This document shows, in pieces, positions 4,054-64,000 of a DNA stretch of 64,000 nucleotides. Position 1 is the first letter of the stretch, and each line of letters starts with the position of its first letter. The notes under the pieces are model-generated. The model did no database searches, was not told the origin of the DNA, and saw only the letters and a program-made list of their open reading frames with translations. A program made the translations under genes and the position numbers. This DNA is from Patescibacteria group bacterium (GTDB lineage Bacteria > Patescibacteriota > Minisyncoccia > Phycocordibacterales > PALSA-1337): contig JBBTRB010000003.1 in the NCBI GenBank assembly GCA_038065395.1, positions 85,800 to 149,799 of the forward strand, written 5' to 3'.

Positions 4054-4109
4054 GTAACTAGTAAAAAGTAACTCGAAAGATGCTTGTGATTTTCTAGTTA
4101 CGAGTTACT
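4054..4109. repeat. divergent copy of the GTAACTMG palindromic motif element (related to the 99-bp repeat at 41321 and 42049)
   Basis: Contains gtaactagtaaaaagtaactcg and ttctagttacgagttac, the same inverted half-sites as the 99-bp repeat. It lies directly upstream of the csaA-like start. Confidence 0.4.
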
Positions 4110-4118
4110 TATTACCTG

Positions 4119-4493
4119 TTACTTCTTGTCCAAATAACTCTGTAGTATCAACGCCGCAGCCGATGCATCCGTGAGCTCAGTCTTCCCCTGGAATCGTTCA
4201 GCTTGCACACTGGTCATGAACTCTGGTTCCCAGTGAACAACGAATCCTACCACCTCGAGACTCTTCTTGAGCTCAGTTGCCGCCGGCAAGATGGCATTTG
4301 CCCCGCCTTTGTAGTTTCGCGACTCCCCTATCACGATCTCTGTGACACCATTCTTCTCTGCAATCTCCTGTATTTCTGAAATAAGTTTCGCAGAAGTCGC
4401 GATCACGACTGCAGGAAATGCAAACTTCGCTTCTTCATCCGAAAGCGCGATACCGACTCTTTTGGTGCCATAGTCTATGCCGAGGAGTTTCAT
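4119..4493 (-). CDS. ruvX: Holliday junction resolvase-like protein RuvX/YqgF
   Basis: 124 aa: MKLLGIDYGTKRVGIALSD is the canonical YqgF N-terminus. Confidence 0.8.
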   Translation of the reverse strand: MKLLGIDYGTKRVGIALSDEEAKFAFPAVVIATSAKLISEIQEIAEKNGVTEIVIGESRNYKGGANAILPAATELKKSLEVVGFVVHWEPEFMTSVQAERFQGKTELTDASAAALILQSYLDKK

Positions 4494-8650: not shown

Positions 8651-9858
8651 TTTTTTATTTTATTCAAGACAAAGATACTTACAACCAAGAGTACCGCGAG
8701 TGATATTATTCCTGATTGGTACCCTCGAGCCCCTTCCCCCATAGCGATGAGGGCGACACTCCACACCATCGGTCCGATAAGTGTGGCGAATCGTTCGGCG
8801 ACGACATAATAACTATACGAGGAAGCAGTCAGGTGCTGAGGAGAAAGTTCTCCTACGAGCGAGCGACTTATCGCCCACACGGGACCATATAATATTCCTG
8901 CGAAAAGAAAGAGTGGTACCAATAGTTTGAAGTTCGTAATAAGTACCATACACAGGAAGATGAGACACCAGACACTGAGAATTAGTTTCAATGTTTTGAG
9001 ATTCCCTTTCTTGTCTGCGATCTTGCCAAATACAAGTGCTCCAAGTGCAGCCAAAACGAGGATGGATGCCGATAAGATCGATTTGGTCGTATCAGTAACT
9101 CCGTGAACCACTTCCAGATAGAGTGGAAAATTATTGGAAAATGTCAGTAGCGCATCACTGAACAAGAAATATCCGATGAAAAATAGTGCGAGTGCCTTGT
9201 GAGAAAATACTTCTTTGAACAGAAGAAAGATATTGGACGAATTGCCGATCTTGGAAGTCCTTGCGGAAATTTTATCTTCTCTGTAAGAAATGAGCATCGG
9301 CAATGACAACAACCCGAAAACGAGTGTGGCTGGGAGAAGAGCCTGTGCCCTTCCCGGGTCACCGAACAGTGTGATCCCATTTGCAAATGGCAACGCAATC
9401 AATATTCCGAAAACTTGTCCGATGGAATTGGCACCTTGACCAATACCTGATTTCCAGGATCGATCACTACCGTCCGATAAGTCGTTCAGCATTGGTGTGA
9501 AGTACAAAAAGCAGACGAGATACGCATATGTAGAAAGCGTATACAAAACCGTGACCAGAATCTCGGCATCACCAGAAAGCATGACAAGGAGAGATACTAC
9601 GACATAACCAATGAATGCGAGGAGTGACCAGAATCTAAGACCTTTTATTTTTGACTTGCCCGCATCAATCCTCTTGCTCACGATAGGAGCCGTAATAATG
9701 AAAAGTGCCGACGAAATGATGAGTGCCAGGTTATACCACCATGCCGGCTTCCCTTGATCAATCACCAACCACTGAGAAAAGTAAAAGAGGAAAGCTATCA
9801 AAACGATCGAATTTGCAAAATCATAGAGAGACCACAAAAATAGGTTCTTTTTGTTCAT
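8647..9858 (-). CDS. MFS transporter
   Basis: Twelve predicted transmembrane helices. Start moved to MNKKNLFLWSLYDF (ATG at 9858) because the longer ORF runs into the tRNA at 9893-9965. Confidence 0.7.
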   Translation of the reverse strand: MNKKNLFLWSLYDFANSIVLIAFLFYFSQWLVIDQGKPAWWYNLALIISSALFIITAPIVSKRIDAGKSKIKGLRFWSLLAFIGYVVVSLLVMLSGDAEILVTVLYTLSTYAYLVCFLYFTPMLNDLSDGSDRSWKSGIGQGANSIGQVFGILIALPFANGITLFGDPGRAQALLPATLVFGLLSLPMLISYREDKISARTSKIGNSSNIFLLFKEVFSHKALALFFIGYFLFSDALLTFSNNFPLYLEVVHGVTDTTKSILSASILVLAALGALVFGKIADKKGNLKTLKLILSVWCLIFLCMVLITNFKLLVPLFLFAGILYGPVWAISRSLVGELSPQHLTASSYSYYVVAERFATLIGPMVWSVALIAMGEGARGYQSGIISLAVLLVVSIFVLNKIKK

Positions 9859-9892
9859 GGGATGAATTATATCATTCCCTTGCCCCTTTTTG

Positions 9893-9965
9893 TGCCCTCG
9901 GTAGGAATCGAACCTACATTGCAGGATCCGCAATCCTGCGTCCTATCCATTGAACGACGAGGGCG
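9893..9965 (-). tRNA. tRNA-Arg (anticodon GCG by manual fold)
   Basis: Reverse complement GCCCTCGTCGTTCAATGGATAGGACGCAGGATTGCGGATCCTGCAATGTAGGTTCGATTCCTACCGAGGGCA. It has a 7-bp acceptor stem, the T-loop GGTTCGATTCC and anticodon loop TTGCGGA. Confidence 0.6.
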
Positions 9966-10290: not shown

Positions 10291-10368
10291 ATATGTGTGT
10301 ATGAAGTTACCATAGCCTTGAAATAAAGTAAAGGAGCGTACTGTTGTATTCTTGGTATACTAGTGACT

Positions 10369-10944
10369 ATGATCTCTTCCCTACGCGGTACCATCATCGA
10401 ATCCGGCGACAAGCATGTCACGATCGACGTCAACGGCATTGGTTACAAAGTGTACGTGACCGACTCGACCCTCCATACCCTCTCCAAAGAGACTTCAGTG
10501 TCGCTCTGGACGTATCTCGCTGTCCGAGAGAACGCTCTCGATCTCTATGGTTTCATCTCCCAGAAAGAACGTGGCCTCTTCGAACTCCTGATCACGATAT
10601 CAGGTATCGGGCCCAAGTCTGCACTCGGTATCATCTCACTCATCGATGCTGACACGCTCGTCCGCGCAGTCCGTAGTGGCTCGACATCGCATCTGGTCAA
10701 AGTCTCGGGTATCGGCAAGAAGACTGCCGAGAAGATCGTACTCGAGCTCAAGGATAAACTCGGTGGTCTCTCTGATATGAGTGAAGAATTCAGCACCGAC
10801 ATGTCGAGCGATGCCGACACCATATCTGCCCTGGTTGCTCTCGGCTACGATGCCGGCGAAGCACGTGACGCTCTCAAGAAAATCTCCAAGGATCTTACGG
10901 ATACGGGTGCCAAGGTCAAGGCTGTGCTCAAACTGTTAAGCTGA
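10369..10944 (+). CDS. ruvA: Holliday junction branch migration protein RuvA
   Basis: MISSLRGTIIESGDKHVTIDVNGIGYKVYV...ISGIGPKSALGIIS...VSGIGKKTAEKIVLELKDK shows the OB domain and tandem HhH motifs. Confidence 0.85.
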   Translation: MISSLRGTIIESGDKHVTIDVNGIGYKVYVTDSTLHTLSKETSVSLWTYLAVRENALDLYGFISQKERGLFELLITISGIGPKSALGIISLIDADTLVRAVRSGSTSHLVKVSGIGKKTAEKIVLELKDKLGGLSDMSEEFSTDMSSDADTISALVALGYDAGEARDALKKISKDLTDTGAKVKAVLKLLS

Positions 10945-15468: not shown

Positions 15469-15525
15469 TTGCTGACCCTCTTCGCAGGCGCCACGTTCAA
15501 TACTTGTCACCCTCAGTTAATATAT

Positions 15526-15905
15526 GTCATCCCCGCGAAAGCGGGGATCCAGGATCATACCACTGACATGATAGATCCTTCCATTGAGGATTAGACTTCT
15601 CGATCAATTCAAGTTTCCACTTCCTACTCCACTTCTTAAGCTGTTTTTCTCTTGTCAAAGCAGCATTCACATCTATGGTTTCTTCAAAATATACTAATTG
15701 AGATATATCATATTTTTCAGTGAATCCAGGTATTATTTTGTGTATATGTTCGTATATACGACGTTCGAGATTATTGGTTACTCCAATATATAATGTTCCG
15801 TTTCTTTTGTTAGTGAGAATATAGATGTAGTAACTCATACCTACGATTGTAGCTAACTAACATACGGGATGCTAATCCTGGATTCCCGCTTTCGCGGGAA
15901 TGACA
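15526..15905. mobile_element. GIY-YIG gene bounded by 31-bp inverted hairpin repeats (candidate autonomous member of the hairpin-TIR repeat family)
   Basis: Left TIR 15526-15556 tgtcatccccgcgaaagcggggatccaggat; right TIR 15875-15905 atcctggattcccgctttcgcgggaatgaca, its reverse complement with two T/C changes. The subterminal aggatcaY is shared with the MITE-like copies at 35259 and 62618. Confidence 0.5.
15527..15838 (-). CDS. GIY-YIG nuclease family protein (YhbQ/COG2827-like URI domain)
   Basis: 103 aa: YIYILTNKRNGTLYIGVTNNLERRIYEH is the GIY-YIG core. The last 9 codons and the stop lie inside the left hairpin repeat. Confidence 0.7.
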   Translation of the reverse strand: MSYYIYILTNKRNGTLYIGVTNNLERRIYEHIHKIIPGFTEKYDISQLVYFEETIDVNAALTREKQLKKWSRKWKLELIEKSNPQWKDLSCQWYDPGSPLSRG

Positions 15906-18195: not shown

Positions 18196-20721
18196 TTATT
18201 TGAGATCTCCCCAATTCGCACCGACCGCCATCTCTGAGGTCAGTGTGATCCCTGCGATATCCTTGGGGTCAATGATCGATTCCATGATCGAGCGGATTTT
18301 CTCCCCTATTTCGTGTGCACGATCTTCGCGGATCTCATAGACCAGTTCGTCGTGCACCTGGAGTATCGGAAATGCCACATCAGTGAGACCTGCCTCCTTG
18401 AGCCAGCTGTCTACCTTGATCAATGCCAGCTTTACCACATCGGCTTCTGTCCCCTGGATCGGGGCATTGAAAGCCATGCGTTCGGCCTGTGCACGAATAT
18501 ACGGAATCTTGGAATTGATCCCCTCAAAATATCGACGACGACCAAAGAAGGTTTCTGTATACCCGGTACGAGCGGCGTCAGCCTTGACCTGGTCAATGTA
18601 TGCGGCGAGTGTAGAAAATGTCGCGAAATAATCATCCATGAATTTCTGAGCTTCGGCGCGATCGGTGCCGAGATTTTGTTTGAGCGCCATAACGCCCATG
18701 CCGTACAGGATGCCGAAGTTGATGACCTTGGCCTTGCGACGCATATCAGAAGTCACCTCGGTCAGTGGAACTTTGAATACCGAACTTGCAACCGACGTAT
18801 GGACATCTGTGCCATTTTTGAAAATATCGATCAACGTTTGATCCTTGGAGAGAAATGCTGCGATACGCAACTCGATCTGAGAATAGTCGAGTGACACCAG
18901 AGCAAAACCTTTCTCAGCTACGAACGCTTTGCGAATAGCTTTGCCCAGCTCGGACTTCACCGGGATATTTTGCAGATTCGGGTCGAGAGATGCCATACGA
19001 CCTGTCGTTGTCCCTGCGGGAATAAAGTCCGAATGCAGACGGTTGTTGCTATCGAGTTGTGGTGGGATAGCATCGATATAGGTAGAGAGGAGCTTTTGTA
19101 GTTCGCGATATTCGAAGATCATCGGAATGATCGGGTGCAGGTCACGGAGCTTCTCGAGTTCTGACTCACGTGTCGAACGTGCTCCCCCACTCGTCTTCTT
19201 CATGTTCTTGCCGACGAGTCCGAGCTTGTCGAACAGGATCTCACCGAGCTGTTTGGGTGAATTGATATTGAACTCAACCCCTGCGGCTGCAGTGATGTTT
19301 TTCTCCAAGAGTGCAAGTTCCTTGTGATATTTCTTGGAAAGATCTGCCAAGAATACTTTGTCGATCTTGACCCCACGCTCTTCCATCCGGTGCGTGATCG
19401 GGAGCAGGGGTAGCTCGAGTGTTTCGTATACGGTGCGGAGATTGCGCCTGTCGAGCTCTTCGAAGATCATTTTTTTGGCGACTTCATAGTCGTCAGTATT
19501 AGCGAAATTCAATATGTCTTCGAGTTGAGGATTGGTGGCATTGGAGTTTATGAGCCATAGTGCCACTCCGGTTTTCTCGATCTCTTCCTTGGAAACAAGA
19601 GGTGATTCTGCACCGCGGATCCCCGCCTGCGCGGGGATGACAGAAAATATGTCACCTTGCCCTCCCGTTTTGTCATCCCCGCGCAGGCGGGGATCTGCGC
19701 TCCCGACAGTAACTACACTCATTGCACTACTCTTCTTCCCTGCCAAGACATTTTCCAACCTTTGCCCGAGAGTTCGGAATTCCAACACATTCCACAACGC
19801 CTTTACCTTCTTGAGGTCAACGTTCTCTTTGAATGTCTTTTCTGGGAAGACGAAATCGATCGGTGCATCACGACGGATAGTCGCCAGCATCTTACTGAAC
19901 ATCGCCTCGTCTTTGTTATCTTTCAGGAGTTGTACGATACGTGGCGTGATCCCGGCTTTGATGAATGCATCTTCATGTCCTGCCTCAAGTTCCACATACA
20001 TATTCTCGAGTGTTCCGAATGAGGTGATGAGGATGGTCGCCGTCTTCTCGCCGACACCTTTGATCCCAGGAATATTGTCAGACGGATCGCCGCGAAGTCC
20101 TTTGTAGTCAGGGATGAGCTCTGGTCCAAAGCCAAATCTTTCCTGTACGGCTTTCTCGTCGTACATGATCGTATCTTTGATCCCCTTCTTGAGAGTGAAT
20201 ACTTTGACCTGCGTACCCGAGATCAGTTGCAACGTATCCATATCGCCAGAAGCGATGATGATCTCTAAATCTTCATCCGACCCGCGGATCCCCGCCTTCG
20301 CGGGGATGACAGGGTTCTTTTCCTCGCTTCCTGAATCTTGAATCATGAATCCCGCATTCTTGAGCTGCTCCACGATCGTCCCCAACATATCGTCAGCCTC
20401 AAAGCCTGCTTTGTCATAGATGGGAATATTGAGAGCCTCGAATACTTGCCGAGACGTATTGAGCTGACGGATCAGAGCATCATCGGTCTTTTGTCTACCC
20501 GCTTTGTATTCTTTGAAGACTTCATGTCGATGAGTCGGCCCTGCCAAGTCGTACGCAGCCACTATATAGTCTGGTTTGAGATCCTCAATGGTCTTGATCA
20601 GCATCGTTGAGAGTCCATATAGAGCTCCTGTCGGTTCGCCTTGTGCAGTCGAAAAGTCTGGCAATGCATGATATGCACGATGCAATATGGCATGCGAGTC
20701 GAGCAAAATGAGTCTTTTCAT
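18196..20721 (-). CDS. polA: DNA polymerase I
   Basis: 841 aa with an N-terminal 5'-3' exonuclease (GFEADDMLGT) and the C-terminal family A polymerase motifs (DYSQIELR, RRKAKVINFGILYG, QVHDELV). It carries repeat-encoded in-frame insertions. Confidence 0.9.
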   Translation of the reverse strand: MKRLILLDSHAILHRAYHALPDFSTAQGEPTGALYGLSTMLIKTIEDLKPDYIVAAYDLAGPTHRHEVFKEYKAGRQKTDDALIRQLNTSRQVFEALNIPIYDKAGFEADDMLGTIVEQLKNAGFMIQDSGSEEKNPVIPAKAGIRGSDEDLEIIIASGDMDTLQLISGTQVKVFTLKKGIKDTIMYDEKAVQERFGFGPELIPDYKGLRGDPSDNIPGIKGVGEKTATILITSFGTLENMYVELEAGHEDAFIKAGITPRIVQLLKDNKDEAMFSKMLATIRRDAPIDFVFPEKTFKENVDLKKVKALWNVLEFRTLGQRLENVLAGKKSSAMSVVTVGSADPRLRGDDKTGGQGDIFSVIPAQAGIRGAESPLVSKEEIEKTGVALWLINSNATNPQLEDILNFANTDDYEVAKKMIFEELDRRNLRTVYETLELPLLPITHRMEERGVKIDKVFLADLSKKYHKELALLEKNITAAAGVEFNINSPKQLGEILFDKLGLVGKNMKKTSGGARSTRESELEKLRDLHPIIPMIFEYRELQKLLSTYIDAIPPQLDSNNRLHSDFIPAGTTTGRMASLDPNLQNIPVKSELGKAIRKAFVAEKGFALVSLDYSQIELRIAAFLSKDQTLIDIFKNGTDVHTSVASSVFKVPLTEVTSDMRRKAKVINFGILYGMGVMALKQNLGTDRAEAQKFMDDYFATFSTLAAYIDQVKADAARTGYTETFFGRRRYFEGINSKIPYIRAQAERMAFNAPIQGTEADVVKLALIKVDSWLKEAGLTDVAFPILQVHDELVYEIREDRAHEIGEKIRSIMESIIDPKDIAGITLTSEMAVGANWGDLK
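19617..19695. repeat. inverted pair of hairpin repeats inside polA (CAGG-loop variant)
   Basis: ggatccccgcctgcgcggggatgaca (19617-19642) and tgtcatccccgcgcaggcggggatc (19671-19695). Read in the polA frame they give ADPRLRGDDK...VIPAQAGIRG. Confidence 0.8.
20286..20311. repeat. single hairpin repeat inside the polA 5'-3' exonuclease domain (GAAGGC-loop variant)
   Basis: ggatccccgccttcgcggggatgaca; in the polA frame it encodes VIPAKAGIRG. Confidence 0.8.
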
Positions 20722-33747: not shown

Positions 33748-33916
33748 GCGCCGGCGCAGGAGGCGTGTTGTCTCAACCCACGATCGACTTTGCTCACAAG
33801 AACTGAACTGTTCGCAAAGTCGTCTTTTCTCGGCGACGTCTAAGGTAGTCATTATTATCCTTGTGGACACGTCGCCTGCGAAGAGGGTTTCGTCAACACG
33901 CCTCCTGCGCCGGCGC
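33748..33916. repeat. three-stem structured element, copy A (23-bp perfect terminal inverted repeats GCGCCGGCGCAGGAGGCGTGTTG)
   Basis: Outer stem 33748-33770 with 33894-33916. The inner hairpins GACTTTGC...GCAAAGTC and GGCGACGT...ACGTCGCC are homologous to copy B at 49657-49808. Confidence 0.6.
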
Positions 33917-35233: not shown

Positions 35234-35258
35234 GGTGTCTGTGTCATTCCTGCTTCTC

Positions 35259-35446
35259 TTGTCATCCCCGCGAAAGCGGGGATCCAGAGGCAAGGGCGTG
35301 GCTACTGACTTATATCTATATCATCACAAACTATTAGGGACCATCCCTGTAATTGCATGCCGAACCTGTCACGTTCAGCGAAGATATAGATTAATCGGAC
35401 TATATACTGGAAGTGATCCTGGATCCCCGCTTTCGCGGGGATGACA
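35259..35446. mobile_element. MITE-like element: hairpin TIRs around a 125-bp ORF-less core
   Basis: tgtcatccccgcgaaagcggggatccagagg ... atcctggatccccgctttcgcggggatgaca; the core is about 78% identical to the reverse complement of the 62618-62804 core. Confidence 0.6.
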
Positions 35447-39020: not shown

Positions 39021-39488
39021 CTACGCAGCTTCTTCGTAATCCTGTGGAGCACGAACTCCGTCACTCACGAGGGGCTGGATGCTAGAGCGACTTGGTGCTG
39101 AGGGTTGAGGTTGGCTCGGTTGACGGACACCACCGGCATTAAAGGTTGGTTGTTTAGTGAATTTGCCATGAGTTGCGTCTTTGAGAGAGATACCTGTTTT
39201 TTCTTGAACCTTGAGAAATGCGAGCAGAATGATCATGCCCACTACGATCGTTGGCAAGGATTGCACGATAGGTAGTATCTCTGCGAGACCAGAAACTACC
39301 ATTGGCGCCAAACGACGGGCATTGAGGAGACCAAAACCTTTGTAATAGAAGTACCACGCTACACAGAACCAAAACGCCGGTCCAACCGCGATACCTACTC
39401 CAGGAATGATGCTCAAGAGGTCTGCTAGAAGCGCCACGAACACGAGTATGATCATGGCCATAATGCCTATCTGTGGAGGATTGTTCAT
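39021..39488 (-). CDS. hypothetical small membrane protein (T4SS operon)
   Basis: 155 aa with three hydrophobic helices and a Pro/Ser-rich tail. Confidence 0.45.
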   Translation of the reverse strand: MNNPPQIGIMAMIILVFVALLADLLSIIPGVGIAVGPAFWFCVAWYFYYKGFGLLNARRLAPMVVSGLAEILPIVQSLPTIVVGMIILLAFLKVQEKTGISLKDATHGKFTKQPTFNAGGVRQPSQPQPSAPSRSSIQPLVSDGVRAPQDYEEAA

Positions 39489-39504
39489 GTGAGGTAGTAT
39501 ACCA

Positions 39505-41316
39505 TTACCCTACCTGCTCCAACTCCTTCTTGGCTTGCTGGATCTGCATGACCTGAGCTGGGTTGGTGGTGATGATCTGGTCTTCGGTGTAGGATGCCAC
39601 GATCTTGATCGCAACGTGCTTGAGGCCGACGAAGAATATACCCTCCCCTACGTCTGACTCGAGCAAGAGATACTTTTCCTCATCGGTGAGGTTGAAGGTC
39701 TTCTGGATACTGTCGATAACTGCTGGGGATTGCTTGAGGAGGATCTGGATCGATGAGTTGGTGACGATCGGTAGGCCATACGGCGAGTTCAGGAAGTCCC
39801 CTACGTCCTGGGTGATTGTCATCAGTCCCAAGAAGTATTTGCGACCTCTTTTTGCCAGACTAAAGAGGAACGAAGCGGTGTCTTCGGATTTCATCATCCA
39901 CCATGCTTCATCGATGACCAGGAGGCGTTTCTTGAGGTTCTTGCGGACAGCGTTCCATATATAGTGCGTGACGATGTACATGGCAACTGGTTTGAGCTCG
40001 TCTTCCATGTCGCGCAGTGAGAACACCACGAACTTTTTGTTGATGTCGACGTTCGAAGGACGGTTGATGAAGCCAGACCAGGTACCTTTTGTGTATTTGC
40101 CGAGACGCTCTACCAGAGAGCTTGCCCCTTCCATGCCGGCAAGTACGAGCTCGAAGTCAGAGAGGAGTGGTGGTTCGACATTGCGGAAGTCGGACTCCGG
40201 TGTGATGTCTTTGAGGGCATATGTCTCGGTGATGGCGCGGTCGATGAGCGCATCTTCTTCCTGGGTGAGACCTCCCAACATGATACGGAAGAGACCGACG
40301 AGGTTGATGGTGTTGGAGCGCAGGATGTCAGCCGCGGACTCGTCTTGCCCAGGGATCGGCAGATCAAAAGGGTTGATATGGTGTTCGGAGTTCAGAGATA
40401 TATTGAAATATTTGCCTCCCGTAGCCTCGGCCATATACTCGTATTCTTTTTCTGGATCAATGACGATGACATCGGTATCGAACATCAGTGTTCGTAGGAT
40501 CTCGAGTTTGGTGCAGTAGGACTTACCTGCACCAGCTACGGCGAACGTCACAGAGTTATAGTTGCCCAGCAAGAATCTGTCAAAAAGCACCAACGAGGAG
40601 TTGTGACGGTTGATACCATAGAGGATGCCTTTGTCTGAGGTCAGGTCAAAAGAGACAAATGGGAAAAGGCTCGAAAGGGGCGAAGAGTTGAGCTTGGAAT
40701 GTACGGCGAGCTGGTCGTCCCCTGTTGGGATCACACTCTTGAACCCTTGCTCTTGTTGGAAGAGAGCTGGTTTGACGTAGATGAGTTTGGATTCGAGGAT
40801 GGACTTGATCTCGGACTCGAGCTTGTCGAGTTCGCCTTCGTTGTCTGCAAAGAGGGTGATGTAGACGCCAACATCGAAGAGGTGTTCTTGCGCTTGCATC
40901 AGTTGGTCGCGGAGCGCCTCGAGATCTTGGTAGGCGGTATCGAGTGCAGGGTCGCGTACGAGTCCTTTGCTCTCTCGGCGAGAGATCTGACTCTGAACCT
41001 CGGCAACTTTCTTTTGGAAATGACGGAGCACCTTGGCGGTATCGATCGGATGTACGAAAATAGAGACGTTGAAGACCTTGTCGAGGTTGATGATCGGGGC
41101 GAACCAGCTCTCATCGAGGAATCGTGGATATGAGATGACGAAGAGTGTTCGACCGACCTTCTCGCCGAGGTTGATGTCTTTGGAGCTGACCTTGAGTGCC
41201 GAAGGAGCGATGACATCCTTGAGCTCGAGCACGCCAGCCTGGTATATCTCCTCGGGCAGGATGGAGACGATCGGACTGGCTTCTTTTTTACCTAATAATT
41301 TTGAAAATATGGACAT
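39505..41316 (-). CDS. VirB4/TrsE/PrgJ-like T4SS ATPase, C-terminal 603-aa ORF
   Basis: Walker A AVAGAGKSY and Walker B LLVIDEAWWM. The Walker A sits only about 260 aa from the N-terminus, so roughly 200 aa of a normal VirB4 N-terminus are missing. Confidence 0.8.
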   Translation of the reverse strand: MSIFSKLLGKKEASPIVSILPEEIYQAGVLELKDVIAPSALKVSSKDINLGEKVGRTLFVISYPRFLDESWFAPIINLDKVFNVSIFVHPIDTAKVLRHFQKKVAEVQSQISRRESKGLVRDPALDTAYQDLEALRDQLMQAQEHLFDVGVYITLFADNEGELDKLESEIKSILESKLIYVKPALFQQEQGFKSVIPTGDDQLAVHSKLNSSPLSSLFPFVSFDLTSDKGILYGINRHNSSLVLFDRFLLGNYNSVTFAVAGAGKSYCTKLEILRTLMFDTDVIVIDPEKEYEYMAEATGGKYFNISLNSEHHINPFDLPIPGQDESAADILRSNTINLVGLFRIMLGGLTQEEDALIDRAITETYALKDITPESDFRNVEPPLLSDFELVLAGMEGASSLVERLGKYTKGTWSGFINRPSNVDINKKFVVFSLRDMEDELKPVAMYIVTHYIWNAVRKNLKKRLLVIDEAWWMMKSEDTASFLFSLAKRGRKYFLGLMTITQDVGDFLNSPYGLPIVTNSSIQILLKQSPAVIDSIQKTFNLTDEEKYLLLESDVGEGIFFVGLKHVAIKIVASYTEDQIITTNPAQVMQIQQAKKELEQVG

Positions 41317-41320
41317 GGGA

Positions 41321-41419
41321 AAGTGTAATTGGAACCTAGTAACTCGTAACTAGAAAAACACACACATGGCTTTTTCTAGTTACAAATTTCTTTTTACGAG
41401 TTACGGTGTTCATGTGATT
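41321..41419. repeat. 99-bp repeat, copy 1 (inside the split VirB4 gene)
   Basis: Character-by-character identical to 42049-42147. Internal inverted half-sites tagtaactcgtaactag / ctagttac...cgagttac; contains stops in the VirB4 frame. Confidence 0.85.
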
Positions 41420-42048
41420 TGTATCGGCTTCTCGGTCTCGCCCGGGTTGAAGATTTTGTAGAATAATTCTACCACTTCTTCGGTTCCGAGTTCTGCACTG
41501 CGGACGCCGCAGCGTACCAGTCCCTGTTCGACTACTGATACTCGCTGTTCGAGCTGACTCCTGTATTCCTGGAATTTGTCATCGAGCGATCCGGCATCCG
41601 CTCCCTTCTTGCCCTTGGGCATCATGTTGGCGAGAGGGTTCTTGCTGGCGGTCATGAGTGGTGGATCGTACGGTATGACCACGAAGAAACTCTTGGACAT
41701 GATGTTGGTGCTCTCGACAAAGGTGCGGATGAACTCGATATATTCTCGGACCTGGATCTTCATGAGCTCAGTGAGCTGCTCTTTGTACTGCCCTTCGAGG
41801 AGGGCAATGTATGGCCTGATATCGAGCTTCTTGGACTGGATACAAATCTGGATCGAGAAATCCAGCGAGTTGAGGAAGTTCTGGAACTGCATCATGATCG
41901 AATTCTGCTCATCAGAAGACTTGAGAGCGAAGTTCAGTGACGATGCCAGGATGATGGCACGCATGCCGCCGTTCTTGAGGATGACCACACCATCGCGGAT
42001 CTCCTGGATCGGTACAAAGTTTTGGGTTGATTGGGGTGCTGTAGGCAT
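41410..42048 (-). CDS. VirB4/TrsE-like N-terminal domain ORF (212 aa)
   Basis: NFVPIQEIRDGVVILKNGGMRAIILASSLNFALKSSDEQNSIMMQFQNFLNS matches the N-terminal domain of Gram-positive VirB4 homologs (TrsE/Orf16/PrgJ-type). It is in the same reading frame as the 603-aa ORF. Confidence 0.55.
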   Translation of the reverse strand: MPTAPQSTQNFVPIQEIRDGVVILKNGGMRAIILASSLNFALKSSDEQNSIMMQFQNFLNSLDFSIQICIQSKKLDIRPYIALLEGQYKEQLTELMKIQVREYIEFIRTFVESTNIMSKSFFVVIPYDPPLMTASKNPLANMMPKGKKGADAGSLDDKFQEYRSQLEQRVSVVEQGLVRCGVRSAELGTEEVVELFYKIFNPGETEKPIQIT

Positions 42049-42147
42049 AAGTGTAATTGGAACCTAGTAACTCGTAACTAGAAAAACACACACATGGCTT
42101 TTTCTAGTTACAAATTTCTTTTTACGAGTTACGGTGTTCATGTGATT
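42049..42147. repeat. 99-bp repeat, copy 2 (between the PrgI-like gene and the VirB4 N-terminal ORF)
   Basis: Identical to 41321-41419. Confidence 0.85.
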
Positions 42148-49656: not shown

Positions 49657-49808
49657 GCAGTATATCCTATTCCTCACCCACGATCAGCTTTGCTCACACT
49701 ACCTAAACCGTTCGCAAAGCTGTCTTTTCTCGGCGCCACCTTACAGGGATTATATATTCAATGTGGACGTGGCGCCTGCGAAGAGGGATCGGAACAGGAC
49801 ATACTGCC
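49657..49808. repeat. three-stem structured element, copy B
   Basis: Outer stem ggcagtatatcctattcctc / gatcggaacaggacatactgcc. Inner hairpins AGCTTTGC...GCAAAGCT and GGCGCCAC...GTGGCGCC. The single-stranded blocks cccacgatc, tcttttctcggcg and cctgcgaagaggg are shared with copy A. Confidence 0.6.
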
Positions 49809-59984: not shown

Positions 59985-60104
59985 AAATTAGTTACAAGTT
60001 AAAAAGTATAAAGTAAAAGTAGACCTAAGACTCAATATATGAAAATTAATAAAAGCTCTGTAAGTATATGCGCTATCTACCTTCTTGTCACTTCGCTCAA
60101 TATT

Positions 60105-60194
60105 CGTCATCCCCGCGAAGGCGGGGATCTGCGCACAAGAATAGACAAATATTAACAGACTAGGTCATGGATCCCCGCCTTCGCGGGGATGACA
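60105..60194. repeat. bare inverted pair of hairpin repeats (GAAGGC-loop variant) with a 39-bp spacer
   Basis: cgtcatccccgcgaaggcggggatc (60105-60129) and ggatccccgccttcgcggggatgaca (60169-60194). Confidence 0.8.
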
Positions 60195-60221
60195 GGAATA
60201 TGGATGGGGTGACACACGAAA

Positions 60222-60864: not shown

Positions 60865-61785
60865 ATGTCGCACAATATCTCCTCTCTCAAGCAGCAATTC
60901 CTAGAATACGTAGAGATCGAAAAGGGTCGTTCGGTCAAAACTGTTGAAAATTATGATCATTATCTCTCTGTTTTCATTCAACATTCGAAAGCCAAACAGC
61001 CGAGCGATATCACCGAGTCTGCTATCCGCGAATTCCGTCTATGGCTCAACCGCCAGTCTACAGGCAATAACCGCGCAACAGGAGCCACCCTCAAGAAAAA
61101 GACCCAGAACTACTACATGATTGCCATTCGCGCATTCCTCAAATATCTGGCCAAGTGCAATATCAAGACATTGAGCCCAGAATACATAGAGCTGGCCAAG
61201 ACGGGTGACAGACACCTCGATCTCATCTCTTCTGCAGAACTGGAGCGACTCCTTGACTGTCCCAAGGGTGACAGTCTCAGGGCGTTGAGAGATAGAGCCA
61301 TTCTTGAGATGCTTTTCTCTACAGGTTTGCGTGTATCTGAACTCTGCTCTCTCACTCGCGATATCGATATAACCGCTGACGACTTCTCTATTCGTGGCAA
61401 AGGAGACAAGATACGCGTAGTTTTCCTCTCCCCTGCCGCCAAGCAGATCCTCAAGAAATATCTCGACAAGCGTACTGATGCCGAGGACGCATTGTTCATA
61501 AAGATGGATGGTAAGGAGAATAAAGGCTCAGATTCAGGTCTTACTCGTCGCTCGATCGAGCGTATCGTCAAAGATCGCGCTGTAGAAGCTGGAATATCCA
61601 AAAAAGTCACTCCTCACGTCATTCGTCACTGTTTTGCCACCAATCTCCTTTCCAATGGTGCCGATCTGCGCTCAGTCCAGATGCTCCTCGGTCATGCCAA
61701 TATCAGTACTACGCAAATATATACCCATATCACCGACAACGAGCTCAAAAAGGTGCATCAGAAGTTTCATGGGAGGTCGAAATAG
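60865..61785 (+). CDS. tyrosine site-specific recombinase XerC/XerD family
   Basis: HVIRHCFATNLLSNGADLRSVQMLLGHANISTTQIYTH catalytic R-H-R-Y region and a XerD-like N-terminal core-binding domain; ATG at 60865. Confidence 0.8.
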   Translation: MSHNISSLKQQFLEYVEIEKGRSVKTVENYDHYLSVFIQHSKAKQPSDITESAIREFRLWLNRQSTGNNRATGATLKKKTQNYYMIAIRAFLKYLAKCNIKTLSPEYIELAKTGDRHLDLISSAELERLLDCPKGDSLRALRDRAILEMLFSTGLRVSELCSLTRDIDITADDFSIRGKGDKIRVVFLSPAAKQILKKYLDKRTDAEDALFIKMDGKENKGSDSGLTRRSIERIVKDRAVEAGISKKVTPHVIRHCFATNLLSNGADLRSVQMLLGHANISTTQIYTHITDNELKKVHQKFHGRSK

Positions 61786-61802
61786 TGTGTTATTATTTTG
61801 TC

Positions 61803-62570
61803 ATGCGAATCATCTCCTGGAATGTCAACGGAATCCGAGCAAATGCGAAGAAAGGCGGCTTCGAATGGCTCGTCAATGAGTCTGCTGACATATTCTGTGT
61901 CCAAGAAACCAAGGCACACCCAGAACAACTAGAGGAAAGTGTCAGAAATCCTGCTGGATATCACTCCTATTTTGACCATTCCAAGGGTCGCAAAGGATAC
62001 AGTGGTGTAGCAGTATTCAGTAAAATAAAGCCAGAAAAAGTCGAGTATGGACTCGGGGTAGATGAGCTCGATCAAGAGGGTCGCTTCCTCGCCCTGTTTT
62101 TCAAGGATTTTGTATTCATAAATATCTACTTTCCCAACGGTGGTGGCGGTCCAGAACGTCTGGATTTCAAACTTCGCTATTATGAGGCCTTTTTGAAATA
62201 CGTGAATAAGCTCCGCGCAGCAGGTCATGAAATCGTCTTTTGTGGCGATATCAACACTGCTCATACTGCTATAGATCTGGCTCGACCCAAAGAAAACGAA
62301 GGAAATACAGGCTTTTTGCCGATTGAGCGTGCTTGGCTCGATAGTGTAGTCAAAGAGGGCTTCGTGGACACATTCCGACACTTCTACCCTACTGACGTGG
62401 GCAGATATACCTACTGGGATCAAAAGACTTTTGCACGAGAGCGCAATGTTGGATGGAGGATAGACTACTTTTTCGTGACGCCAGGACTCCTCGAAAGGCT
62501 CAAAAGCGTGGCAATTCTCGATAACGTATTGGGCTCAGATCATTGCCCTATCGAAATAGTTCTGAGATAG
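61803..62570 (+). CDS. xth: exodeoxyribonuclease III (Xth)
   Basis: MRIISWNVNGIRA, CVQETK, GDINTAHT and GSDHCPI motifs. Confidence 0.85.
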   Translation: MRIISWNVNGIRANAKKGGFEWLVNESADIFCVQETKAHPEQLEESVRNPAGYHSYFDHSKGRKGYSGVAVFSKIKPEKVEYGLGVDELDQEGRFLALFFKDFVFINIYFPNGGGGPERLDFKLRYYEAFLKYVNKLRAAGHEIVFCGDINTAHTAIDLARPKENEGNTGFLPIERAWLDSVVKEGFVDTFRHFYPTDVGRYTYWDQKTFARERNVGWRIDYFFVTPGLLERLKSVAILDNVLGSDHCPIEIVLR

Positions 62571-62617
62571 TTCTGTGGCTTAATAAGAGGCTATTAAATG
62601 AAATACAGCATCTATCT

Positions 62618-62804
62618 TGTCATTCCCGCGAAAGCGGGAATCCAGGATCACTTCCAGTATAGAGTTGATGCAAGTCATATAAACAATGAATGTGAAGGGT
62701 TCAGCATTTACTCACAAGGATAGTTTATAGTAGTTTGCGATTATATAAATATAAGTAAGTAACCATGCCCTTGCTCCTGGATTCCCGCTTTCGCGGGAAT
62801 GACA
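62618..62804. mobile_element. MITE-like element: hairpin TIRs (T-variant) around a 125-bp core, inverted relative to the 35259 copy
   Basis: tgtcattcccgcgaaagcgggaatccaggat ... tcctggattcccgctttcgcgggaatgaca. Confidence 0.6.
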
Positions 62805-62868
62805 AAAAAAGCGAGGGTAACACATATAAAAAAATGTCTTGCAGATAGAGATTGTGGATAGCTCCAAT

Positions 62869-62921
62869 AAAAAACCGCGTTGGGTGTCTAGAGAACTAGT
62901 AAGACACGTAGCGCGGTTTTT
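62869..62921. terminator. bidirectional intrinsic terminator
   Basis: aaaaaaccgcg-ttgg-gtgtct...agacac-gtag-cgcggttttt: a nested perfect hairpin flanked by an A-run and a T-run. Confidence 0.55.
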
Positions 62922-63287
62922 GAAGTTGCTGCTCGGGGTAAAAAAGAACAAGTCTTCTTCTATCCGAACGGTTCCTTAGATACGGTGTGCATTGCCCTTT
63001 GAAAAGTGGTTCCTCCGGAGGAGGACCTAATGAGATCGTAAGACAATATATGCACCGTTGTTTCCTAAGCAACAGAAGGACGAGGAAGGTTTACGAACAA
63101 CCTCCGCATCAACTTCATGAAAAGGAGAGCAGCCTACCCTGCTGCTAATTTTGTGGAAAGAGCTTTCGGTGTTCTATCGAGAAGATATTCTCTCTTCGCG
63201 ATACCTCGGGAACATCTCGAGGTCTGCACAAAAGTATATGTCCTTTAGATCAGTGTGTAAAGGACATACTGTGGATAACCTGCAGAT

Positions 63288-64000
63288 CTAAGAGACATGA
63301 TATTTTTTACGGATCTCCTCGATGTCTTTTTTGTCTTCTTCCCTTTTTCGTTCGGCTCCAGCAGTTCCCAGTGCTTTCAAGGCTGTTTCATTCATAGAAG
63401 CGAGCTCTATAGCCCTTTTGTCTATGTATTCTGTAGTGTTGAGCTTCGGATCGGAGAGTATTTCGTCGAATATTGCATGCAGAATATAGCCCACCTTCGG
63501 TCCCGGGGCTAGATGTGTCACCTCCATGATGGCTTTACCGTCGCGTTTCATCATGGCGAGAGATATAGGGTCACGTAATGCTTCGTCTACCATGGCTTTG
63601 TACTTTCTCAGTCTATAAGGGTCTTCTTTTGGCCTACCTGTGCCGATTCGGTCGCAAATGCGTACATTCATCAGATCCCAGATGTTTTCATGGCCAACAT
63701 TGACGATCATCCTACGAACGGCAGACAAGTTTATCTGTTCAGTATCAGAGAAGAACATGTGCCAGCGTACCAATTTGACCACTTTCTCAATGATTACACG
63801 TGAAAACCTCATTCTCTCGAGTATTTTGCGTGTTTCACGTGAACCAACCACCTCGTGGCCGTAGAATGTGTATTGATTTGTCTCACGTGAAAACCTTCGG
63901 GTCTGTGGCTTGGCTATATCATGGAAGAGGGCCGCAAGACGAATATCTAGAGGCCACTCCTTGTCAGCGGCATGTTGTAGGCTACGCAAAAGGTGTTCCC
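63288..64000 (-). CDS. cca: CCA-adding enzyme / tRNA nucleotidyltransferase, HD-domain C-terminal part (N-terminus beyond window end)
   Basis: LAALFHDIAKP...YGHEVVGSRETRKILE matches the HD domain of class II CCA-adding enzymes; the ORF continues past 64000. Confidence 0.6.
   Translation of the reverse strand, partial: EHLLRSLQHAADKEWPLDIRLAALFHDIAKPQTRRFSRETNQYTFYGHEVVGSRETRKILERMRFSRVIIEKVVKLVRWHMFFSDTEQINLSAVRRMIVNVGHENIWDLMNVRICDRIGTGRPKEDPYRLRKYKAMVDEALRDPISLAMMKRDGKAIMEVTHLAPGPKVGYILHAIFDEILSDPKLNTTEYIDKRAIELASMNETALKALGTAGAERKREEDKKDIEEIRKKYHVS

Follow-up and report, generated by a model that had tools for sequence, protein, structure and literature searches.

The 187-bp unit at positions 62618–62804 of the window (the 64-kb stretch of DNA analyzed here as a whole) is best read as a REPIN- or NIME-like doublet that would be a partner of the ssDNA nuclease Ssn. 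We put at roughly three in four the probability that it is a non-coding, inverted doublet of NTS-type SRM motifs belonging to the SRM-Ssn system, with the biochemistry expected of Ssn; our confidence in any particular copying mechanism is much lower. If so, the relation of the doublet to the nuclease gene ssnA would be that between a REPIN and a RAYT, or between a MITE and the parent IS. The NTS (Neisseria Transformation Sequence), CGTCATTCCCGCGMAVGCGGGAATCYRG, is the dRS3 repeat in a longer, oriented form (Chenal et al., Nat Commun 2025, PMC11893778), and we reached the literature on NTS and SRM through the DNA string of the element itself; searches for literature combining GIY-YIG with MITE, TIR, REPIN, REP or COG2827 found none.

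The unit starts TGTCATTCCCGCGAAAGCGGGAATCCAGGA and ends TCCTGGATTCCCGCTTTCGCGGGAATGACA. A repeat search placed its inverted arms at 62617–62650 and 62772–62805 (34 nt each, 97% complementary, 121 nt apart), and each end of the unit is a hairpin with an 8-bp stem, a 4-nt loop and unlike borders, TGTCAT and CCAG. In the forward reading, the left SRM (TGTCATTCCCGCGAAAGCGGGAATCCAG, T variant, 62618–62645) lies on the plus strand and the right SRM (also the T variant, 62777–62804) on the minus strand; the two point inward around a 131-nt non-coding core (62646–62776) that includes the extended TIR bases (GATCA.. and ..TGCTC). Both ends agree with the NTS consensus at 27 of 28 positions, the sole mismatch being T for C at position 1; the authors' own search for NTS admitted at most one mismatch to CGTCATTCCCGCGMAVGCGGGAATCYRG (PMC11893778). 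Both ends also contain ATTCCCGCGAAAGCGGGAAT, a perfect 20-bp dRS3 repeat as that repeat is defined (ATTCCC-N8-GGGAAT; PMC11893778). The C-variant sites in the window have at least three mismatches to the NTS, which makes them SRM and not strict NTS.

The SRM class is described by the degenerate pattern HGTCWY N0-2 YYVSBRH N0-5 WNVSBRG N0-2 RNCYNB (PMC11893778), which both ends of the unit match. The 64-kb window holds 11 matches to it (mean of 0.32 and maximum of 3 in 100 dinucleotide shuffles), and these are exactly the 11 termini that had been found independently beforehand: those of two 187-bp doublets, a 90-bp doublet, both ends of the ssnA unit, and three sites within the polA reading frame. 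The 16-nt hairpin core, allowing up to three mismatches, occurs nine times in the window when 0.41 occurrences are expected. The 90-bp doublet (60105–60194), a short form situated between an NYN-domain gene and rpsO, has half-SRMs outside both of its ends. SRMs occur not only as inward-facing pairs and in frame within polA but also solo, in tandem and facing outward. Among the 109 inward-facing pairs in all of the DNA compared, most span some 60–120 bp and the ssnA units some 360–400 bp; the 185–206 bp class is rare, with five members that include both window copies.

Selection acts on the hairpin. Across the 25 distinct SRM types at the loci compared, the GTCAT and the C that follows the stem are invariant, and compensatory changes occur at four of the seven stem pairs. 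The T and C variants themselves differ by one such change, from U-A to C-G at a single pair. The question of whether these variants define subfamilies can be answered in the negative, because the ssnA unit combines a C end with a T end, and other genomes (L091 and L092) have mixed pairs as well. As single-stranded DNA, the 187-bp element has a minimum free energy of −47.7 kcal/mol (z = −10 relative to shuffles), and both ends are paired in the minimum-energy structure. Rfam searches of the whole window, together with a permissive search of 62560–63300, returned four tRNAs only; a match to FtrB was far below threshold and was set aside as an artefact of the long hairpin.

The unit (copy B) is homologous over its full length, in reverse orientation, to a second 187-bp SRM doublet (copy A, of the C variant) at 35260–35446 on the minus strand, whose neighbors are yidC and a convergent 431-aa gene. 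In BLASTN comparisons, the copies are 79% identical over 196 nt and the 121-nt core alone is 73% identical (E = 3e-12); the corresponding repeat arms pair 35240–35377 with 62687–62824 (138 nt, 78%) and 35399–35446 with 62618–62665 (48 nt, 94%). The SRMs have been kept better than the core that they enclose, at 26 of 28 positions versus 73%. The earlier note on this DNA had described the unit as having the architecture of the copy at 35259, a homologous core and the inverted orientation, and these statements are borne out, as is its remark that the T-variant termini are those found at the end of the GIY-YIG unit: positions 62775–62804 are identical, at 30 of 30 nucleotides, to 15876–15905, the arm located 5′ of ssnA.

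The only core similar to 62646–62776 is that of copy A, and no further copies of the 121-nt core were found outside of the source genome among the approximately 290 loci compared. Beyond about 16 subterminal nucleotides, the core has no similarity to ssnA, nor does it contain a convincing ORF. A 7-aa string (YIYIITN) in the core of copy A was considered as a possible remnant of ssnA and was rejected: it is of low complexity, in the wrong orientation and missing from copy B. Rfam assigned the core to no family, and matches to two plant miRNA-precursor models (E of about 0.002; 29.5 and 25.4 bits against gathering thresholds of 195 and 110) are best read as artefacts of the long hairpin.

The same motifs flank a nuclease gene in the window. 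Some 47 kb from the doublet, a 381-bp ssnA unit (15525–15905, minus strand) consists of an SRM, a 103-aa GIY-YIG gene and a second SRM; its SRMs (15525–15552 on the plus strand and 15878–15905 on the minus strand) face inward and match the SRM pattern, and no other coding unit in the window has ends like those of the doublet. The ssnA-type gene (15527–15838, minus strand) reaches into one of these motifs, such that its stop and last nine codons fall within the SRM. Its product has a single domain (Pfam GIY-YIG, E = 1.6e-17, residues 3–76), which is the only Pfam match to pass comfortably; the T5orf172 model is marginal (E = 8.9e-4, 20.2 bits against a 20-bit cut-off). Searches with this protein yielded only a sub-threshold match to a group I intron endonuclease in NCBIfam, no relative at E ≤ 0.01 in the PDB, and no informative match in PADLOC. 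Assignment to CDD model cd10448 (GIY-YIG_unchar_3) is a further criterion for the Ssn family.

What is known of Ssn proteins comes from their biochemical description (PMC11893778). SsnA has 94 aa and GIY-YIG as its only domain, and NTS/SRM motifs typically border its gene; the protein binds the hairpin as ssDNA only, and cuts a few nucleotides upstream on one strand only. Such ssDNA-only binding and cleavage are known for four homologs, and Ssn proteins differ in their specificity (PMC11893778). Mutation of Y6, Y17 or E64 abolished the activity of the N. meningitidis protein (PMC11893778), and residues with these numbers are invariant in 20 homologs of the window protein; we infer that the two numberings are equivalent. 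The only in vivo role published for SsnA is not in mobility but in the restriction of transforming ssDNA, whose integration is limited by the NTS and SsnA in N. meningitidis. By analogy with the enzymes characterized from Neisseria and Wolbachia, the Ssn encoded in the window would be expected to cut at 62618–62804.

The association between motif and nuclease is widespread. The window protein has more than 8000 relatives (97–104 aa, about 70% identity) across phyla, many of which end in peptides encoded by SRMs (e.g., WIPDQVGNDK, WIPAFAGMT and DPGSPLSRG). Homologs of at least 54% identity from Saccharibacteria, Coxiellaceae, Alphaproteobacteria, Rhizomicrobium, Bradyrhizobium pachyrhizi and Methylophilaceae carry inward-facing TGTCAT-hairpin-CCAG motifs at their borders, with stems that differ by compensating changes. 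At IMG/VR loci, ssnA is flanked on both sides in 18 of 44 cases and on one side in 11 of 44; the flanking figures given in PMC11893778 are 42% and 71%.

Examination of relatives revealed that the presence of these units varies at three sites. A syntenic relative, L007 (76% amino acid identity in YidC and 95% in a VirB4-like protein), has no element at the site of copy A: there, yidC and its convergent neighbor overlap, and therefore leave no room for one. Conversely, a 16-bp spacer in the window corresponds to an ssnA unit in this relative. At the site of copy B, the gene order xerC-xth-spacer-cca is kept in dozens of relatives, yet the 187-bp element is absent from all 10 of the closest xth-cca spacers examined, and one relative (L049) has a 73-bp doublet elsewhere within this spacer. 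The relatives' xth genes are only 55–73% identical to that of the window, and the spacer is too diverged for the junction at the xth-cca locus to be placed to the base. All contigs that have an identical YidC carry copy A, and two of them break inside it; an exact-protein look-up of xth for strain variants returned no record, the called start probably being different. The density of SRMs differs as well, with 11 in the 64 kb of the window versus three pattern matches, about two of them genuine, across 389 kb from the loci of relatives.

Because copies A and B share their core, and because orthologous sites in relatives are without the elements, the doublet must have been acquired, or copied, as a whole. 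Its ends match those of the ssnA unit, including some 16 subterminal and some 20 outer nucleotides: the left 44 nt of copy B agree with the 5′ end of that unit at 91% identity, and the right end together with its outer flank of about 20 nt agrees with the 3′ end at 81% over 53 nt. That outer flank (62805–62824, minus strand) contains a truncated half-SRM (TGTTACCCTCGC followed by TTTTTT) directly 5′ of the right SRM, and since the similarity between copies A and B, as well as that to the ssnA unit, runs about 20 nt past the right end, the flank probably belongs to the copied unit. Only two copies of the 187-bp form were found, and they are 79% identical; therefore, there is no sign of recent activity.

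Truncated half-SRMs are not confined to this flank. Of 73 SRMs, 13 have one at 19–24 nt upstream; these 13 represent several phyla and come from the window, Woesebacteria, Coxiellaceae and an alphaproteobacterium. The half-SRMs consist of the 5′ flank and 5′ arm, sometimes extending into the loop, and stop 3–7 nt before the full SRM. Four or five half-sites occur in tandem in L007, with a period of 22 nt. The distance of the junction from the full motif is similar to the reported cut position of Ssn, and the half-sites are possibly its footprint.

How might such a unit be copied? Wherever DNA becomes single-stranded, as during replication, repair or the uptake of transforming DNA, each SRM would be expected to fold into its hairpin, and Ssn would bind this hairpin and cut the strand that carries it, a few nucleotides to the 5′ side. 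The predicted cuts are just to the left of 62618 on the plus strand and just to the right of 62804 on the minus strand, i.e., one cut per strand on opposite sides of the element. Synthesis with strand displacement could start from the resulting 3′-OH ends and run through the element, and the displaced strand would fold upon itself (−47.7 kcal/mol). Because inward-facing SRMs provide only one cleavable site per strand, Ssn alone could not excise the unit from one strand. GIY-YIG enzymes hydrolyze DNA and cannot rejoin it, and to our knowledge they have no ligase or strand-transfer activity; any copying must therefore use host replication or recombination, and in a putative sequence of events, cleavage by Ssn would be followed by copying of the unit by these host processes.

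A bolder extension, which we offer tentatively and consider doubtful on balance, is that SRM doublets and ssnA units constitute a distinct class of prokaryotic mobile elements that lack a transposase. Ssn would nick 5′ of each inward hairpin, and host replication or annealing would copy the segment to new sites, often beside or inside existing SRMs, leaving half-SRMs 3–7 nt from the junction. Such elements would have been active enough in Patescibacteria to produce in-frame insertions in polA. Two outward-facing SRMs (19615–19642 on the minus strand and 19671–19698 on the plus strand) are in frame in the polA linker at 19615–19698, where they encode ..ADPRLRGDD..VIPAQAGIRG.., and the segment that carries this pair is absent from most PolA homologs. 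A solo SRM in the 5′-nuclease domain (20284–20311, minus strand) is likewise in frame, encoding VIPAKAGIRG, and sits within a 22–26-aa insertion that neither the Pol I of Taq and M. smegmatis nor some 40 PolA sequences from Patescibacteria contain. In a further PolA (P0130), the same two loops carry independent pairs of SRM peptides.

The foremost alternative takes the doublet for a true REPIN, replicated by a RAYT (Y1/HUH) encoded elsewhere in the 0.76-Mb genome, with Ssn merely using the same hairpins, for example in the restriction of ssDNA. The resemblance is considerable: As in REPINs, two inverted short palindromic repeats (here 121 nt apart) fold into one long hairpin, the gene for the cognate protein is itself flanked by the repeats, and singlets coexist with doublets. 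Moreover, ATTCCCGCGCAGGCGGGAATC, the core of the Neisseria NTS and dRS3, was itself classed as the REP of REPINs that are tied to a Group 2 RAYT (Bertels & Rainey), and the analogy to REP/RAYT, along with the likeness of NTS-ssnA-NTS to an IS, was already noted by Chenal et al. (PMC11893778). The same classification work found that REPINs decay where the RAYT is frameshifted (Bertels & Rainey), and because this decay follows the loss of a RAYT in Neisseria, it points away from Ssn as the replicator. RAYT-like Y1_Tnp genes are also common in Patescibacteria (6490 matches), and in L004 and L092 they lie 3.6 and 5.3 kb, respectively, from ssnA.

Several observations speak against this alternative. 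A tblastn search detected no RAYT homolog in the 64-kb window, and none of the best 120 of the 6490 matches is on the source contig. At five independent RAYT-like loci in Patescibacteria (those of L004 and L092, together with L115, L118 and L119), no SRM adjoins the gene; these genes carry other palindromes, that of L119 having a distinct one of its own, ATCGACAACGGTTGTCGAT. The gene that is flanked by SRMs is ssnA, which encodes a GIY-YIG hydrolase and not an HUH/Y1 transposase, and the spacer of 121–131 nt is about as long as the rule for REPINs (below 130 bp) allows. Replication by a distant RAYT thus seems to us unlikely, though it has a better claim than the other alternatives.

The doublet might instead be a non-mobile site maintained by the host, such as a cleavage or 'restriction' mark for Ssn, a barrier to transcription or replication, or a stem that stabilizes the xth transcript, its second copy having arisen by ordinary recombination between SRMs. 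Domestication is the view favored by Chenal et al. for the NTS and SsnA of N. meningitidis, which limit the integration of transforming ssDNA (PMC11893778). The stronger conservation of the SRMs (26 of 28) than of the core (73%) would suit such a role, as would the location of the element, 47 nt past the stop codon of xth. But a site kept by the host does not readily account for presence and absence that differ among relatives at three sites, and the in-frame SRMs in the loops of polA give the impression of tolerated insertions, not of designed sites. As for effects on transcription, we considered the SRM hairpins as intrinsic terminators and rejected this: they are not followed by a T-run, and therefore are not terminators of this type. 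We give a host-maintained, immobile site only a slim chance as a full account of the element; a host role is nonetheless compatible with its being an SRM doublet, and the two are not exclusive.

That the element is a classical MITE, i.e., an internally deleted derivative of a DDE-type IS that was moved in trans by the transposase of that IS, is very improbable despite its 34-nt TIRs, small size, non-coding and intergenic nature, and second, diverged copy, because there is no target-site duplication at any of the four window units (62618–62804, 35260–35446, 15525–15905 and 60105–60194), there is no transposase gene with these ends (TGTCATYCCCGCG...) in the window or near any window SRM, and the 'TIRs' are autonomous NTS/SRM hairpins that are also found alone, in tandem or in outward orientation, unlike the ends of an IS, and that equal a motif with a known and different protein partner, Ssn. 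The sequences bordering 62618–62804 (ATCTATCT before TGTCAT and AAAAAAAG after ATGACA) are unrelated. The term MITE-like, which the earlier note had applied to the unit, thus holds only in a loose sense: the architecture, the homology to copy A, the inverted orientation and the T-variant ends are as the note described them, whereas a MITE in the narrow sense is not supported.

Considered as an SRM doublet, the element can be compared to several known systems. At the level of sequence, it agrees with the NTS and SRM in every defining respect and has the geometry of a REPIN, and it lacks the target-site duplication and transposase of a MITE. The likeness to the NTS/SRM-Ssn system (PMC11893778) extends to the 28-nt oriented hairpin, which at the ends of this unit differs from the NTS at one of 28 positions; to the invariant GTCAT 5′ of the palindrome and invariant C after it; to the gene of about 100 aa for a single-domain GIY-YIG protein between inward-facing motifs; and to the strong over-representation of motifs whose stems vary among taxa by compensatory changes. 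The differences are that the host here is a groundwater Patescibacteria MAG, that the 187-bp doublet has a conserved core and has been copied as a unit, that truncated half-motifs lie about 20 nt outside the ends, and that three of the 11 window motifs are in frame in an essential gene, whereas in N. meningitidis 2% are in genes (PMC11893778).

NIMEs were reportedly described, by Parkhill et al. in 2000, as repeat segments of 50–150 bp bounded by dRS3 inverted repeats. The layout here is as in NIMEs, and the T-variant end holds a perfect dRS3; in contrast, the unit is single and not part of a mosaic array, it comes from a different phylum, and the C variant (ATCCCC..GGGGAT) falls outside of the strict dRS3 consensus. 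MITEs such as Correia/NEMIS and Nezha are also small and non-coding, with TIRs, and fold as hairpins, but the present unit has neither a target-site duplication nor a DDE transposase as a partner, and its ends are autonomous hairpins with a nuclease of their own. Rickettsia palindromic elements (RPE) likewise have family members in frame inside protein genes, as SRMs are in polA, a likeness in layout.

The element, then, belongs as an ordinary member to a repeat system reported in 2025, and its host lineage is new to that system. Four points are apparently additional to the available text of PMC11893778: the filled and empty orthologous sites for both the doublet and the ssnA unit; the non-coding doublet with ends, outer flank included, that reproduce those of the nuclease unit; the half-motifs at a fixed distance outside the ends in several phyla; and the tolerance of motifs in frame in an essential polymerase. 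Together they bear on whether Ssn, RAYTs or neither of the two spreads NTS/SRM repeats. Patescibacteria are considered heavily dependent on DNA uptake, and given this reliance, an ssDNA-specific nuclease with targets in the genome may matter for their biology.

Copy B lies between an Exo_endo_phos (xth-like) gene at 61785–62570 on the plus strand and a convergent HD/CCA-type gene on the minus strand that ends at 63288, which is the convergent placement that had been noted before. The accompanying description of a non-coding 'safe-landing' site of about 700 bp is correct as to the convergent pair and the length of the spacer, which is 717 bp; however, about 400 nt of it are a block conserved in relatives, and the site is only partly empty. 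This block (about 62,868–63,285) is conserved in five relatives, a minus-strand transcript of about 355 nt is predicted from it, and Rfam returned no match to it. A hairpin followed by a T-run can be read from the sequence on the minus strand at 62,921–62,868; a terminator scan did not list this hairpin, its only matches being to a stem-loop at 63128–63146. The block further contains a promoter-like site on the minus strand (63261–63233), DnaA-box-like TGTGGATAAC motifs, and long-range helices with compensatory changes.

Three in-frame SRMs, each a hairpin motif, lie within polA (18196-20721, minus strand), at 19615-19642, 19671-19698 and 20284-20311, and are translated as the peptides VIPAKAGIRG, DPRLRGDD and VIPAQAGIRG. 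These peptides occupy two loops that are empty in most PolA homologs, and P0130, another PolA from the Patescibacteria, carries independent pairs of SRM peptides in the same two loops. In this respect, the polA motifs resemble the Rickettsia palindromic elements; they contrast with the NTS of N. meningitidis, for which PMC11893778 reports 2% within genes.

Outside the ends of SRMs we find truncated half-SRMs, consisting of TGTCAY and the 5' arm and in some cases reaching into the loop. Of 73 full motifs, drawn from several phyla, 13 have such a half-SRM 19-24 nt upstream, with a gap of 3-7 nt between the end of the half-SRM and the start of the full motif; this junction distance is similar to the published cut position of Ssn. 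The sites in the window are at 62805-62824, 35240-35259, 15505-15524, 60085-60104, 60195-60216 and 19643-19670, and others are present in loci L004, L007, L049, L089 and L090, the syntenic relative L007 having four to five half-SRMs in tandem (10318-10405) with a period of 22 nt.

In L007 (9749-10405), an ssnA unit is situated between a 157-aa gene and a VirB4/TraG-like gene, at a site whose counterpart in the window (39488-39505) has a 16-bp spacer, and its protein is 70% identical to that encoded by the ssnA of the window. Three 57-nt tandem repeats (9760-9900) are located just upstream. Among IMG/VR loci L123-L287, on contigs with a viral or prophage classification, there are at least 120 stretches with NTS-type SRMs and 45 homologs of ssnA; in L137, a single such contig, 1.2 kb contains at least 13 SRMs on the same strand.

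RAYT-like (Y1_Tnp) genes of Patescibacteria in L115, L118 (5001-5762) and L119 (5001-5702) hold fixed positions. In two lineages this position is within a cluster of type IV pilus genes, with the prepilin peptidase gene on one side and pilin genes on the other. The gene in L119 is flanked by a palindrome of its own, ATCGACAACGGTTGTCGAT, and not by SRMs. This appears to be a separate REP-RAYT system that has possibly been domesticated.

The remainder of the xth-cca spacer (approximately 62,868-63,285, minus strand) is a block kept in relatives L008, L010, L011, L012 and L014, with the retained strings GGGTAGGC, CTTCTGTTGCTTAGG and GGTGCA/TGCACACC. A promoter-like TTTACA-17-TATACT (63261-63233, minus strand) lies inside an inverted repeat and adjoins a DnaA-box-like TGTGGATAAC; the promoter motif is on the opposite strand in L013, L015, L016, L020 and L049. 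From reading of the sequence, a hairpin followed by a T-run extends from 62,921 to 62,868 on the minus strand, and is not among the hits of the terminator scan. RNAalifold recovered six compensatory pairs, and a search of Rfam with the block returned no match even at E <= 10. The block is a candidate for a previously unknown ncRNA of about 355 nt.

A pair of perfect 99-nt direct repeats (41321-41419 and 42049-42147; separation 728 bp) brackets a 212-aa ORF (41410-42048, minus strand) in a type IV secretion-like cluster; related motifs of 33-43 nt (TTTTCTAGTTAC...) are present at 4080-4122. A region of about 110 nt adjoining dnaA (within 33748-33916) has a second copy 15,900 bp away (49676-49787), with matches of 85% (33776-33835 vs. 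49676-49735) and 80% (33853-33887 vs. 49753-49787), and the two arms of a 32-nt inverted repeat (33748-33779 and 33885-33916, 91%) lie on either side of the copy beside dnaA.
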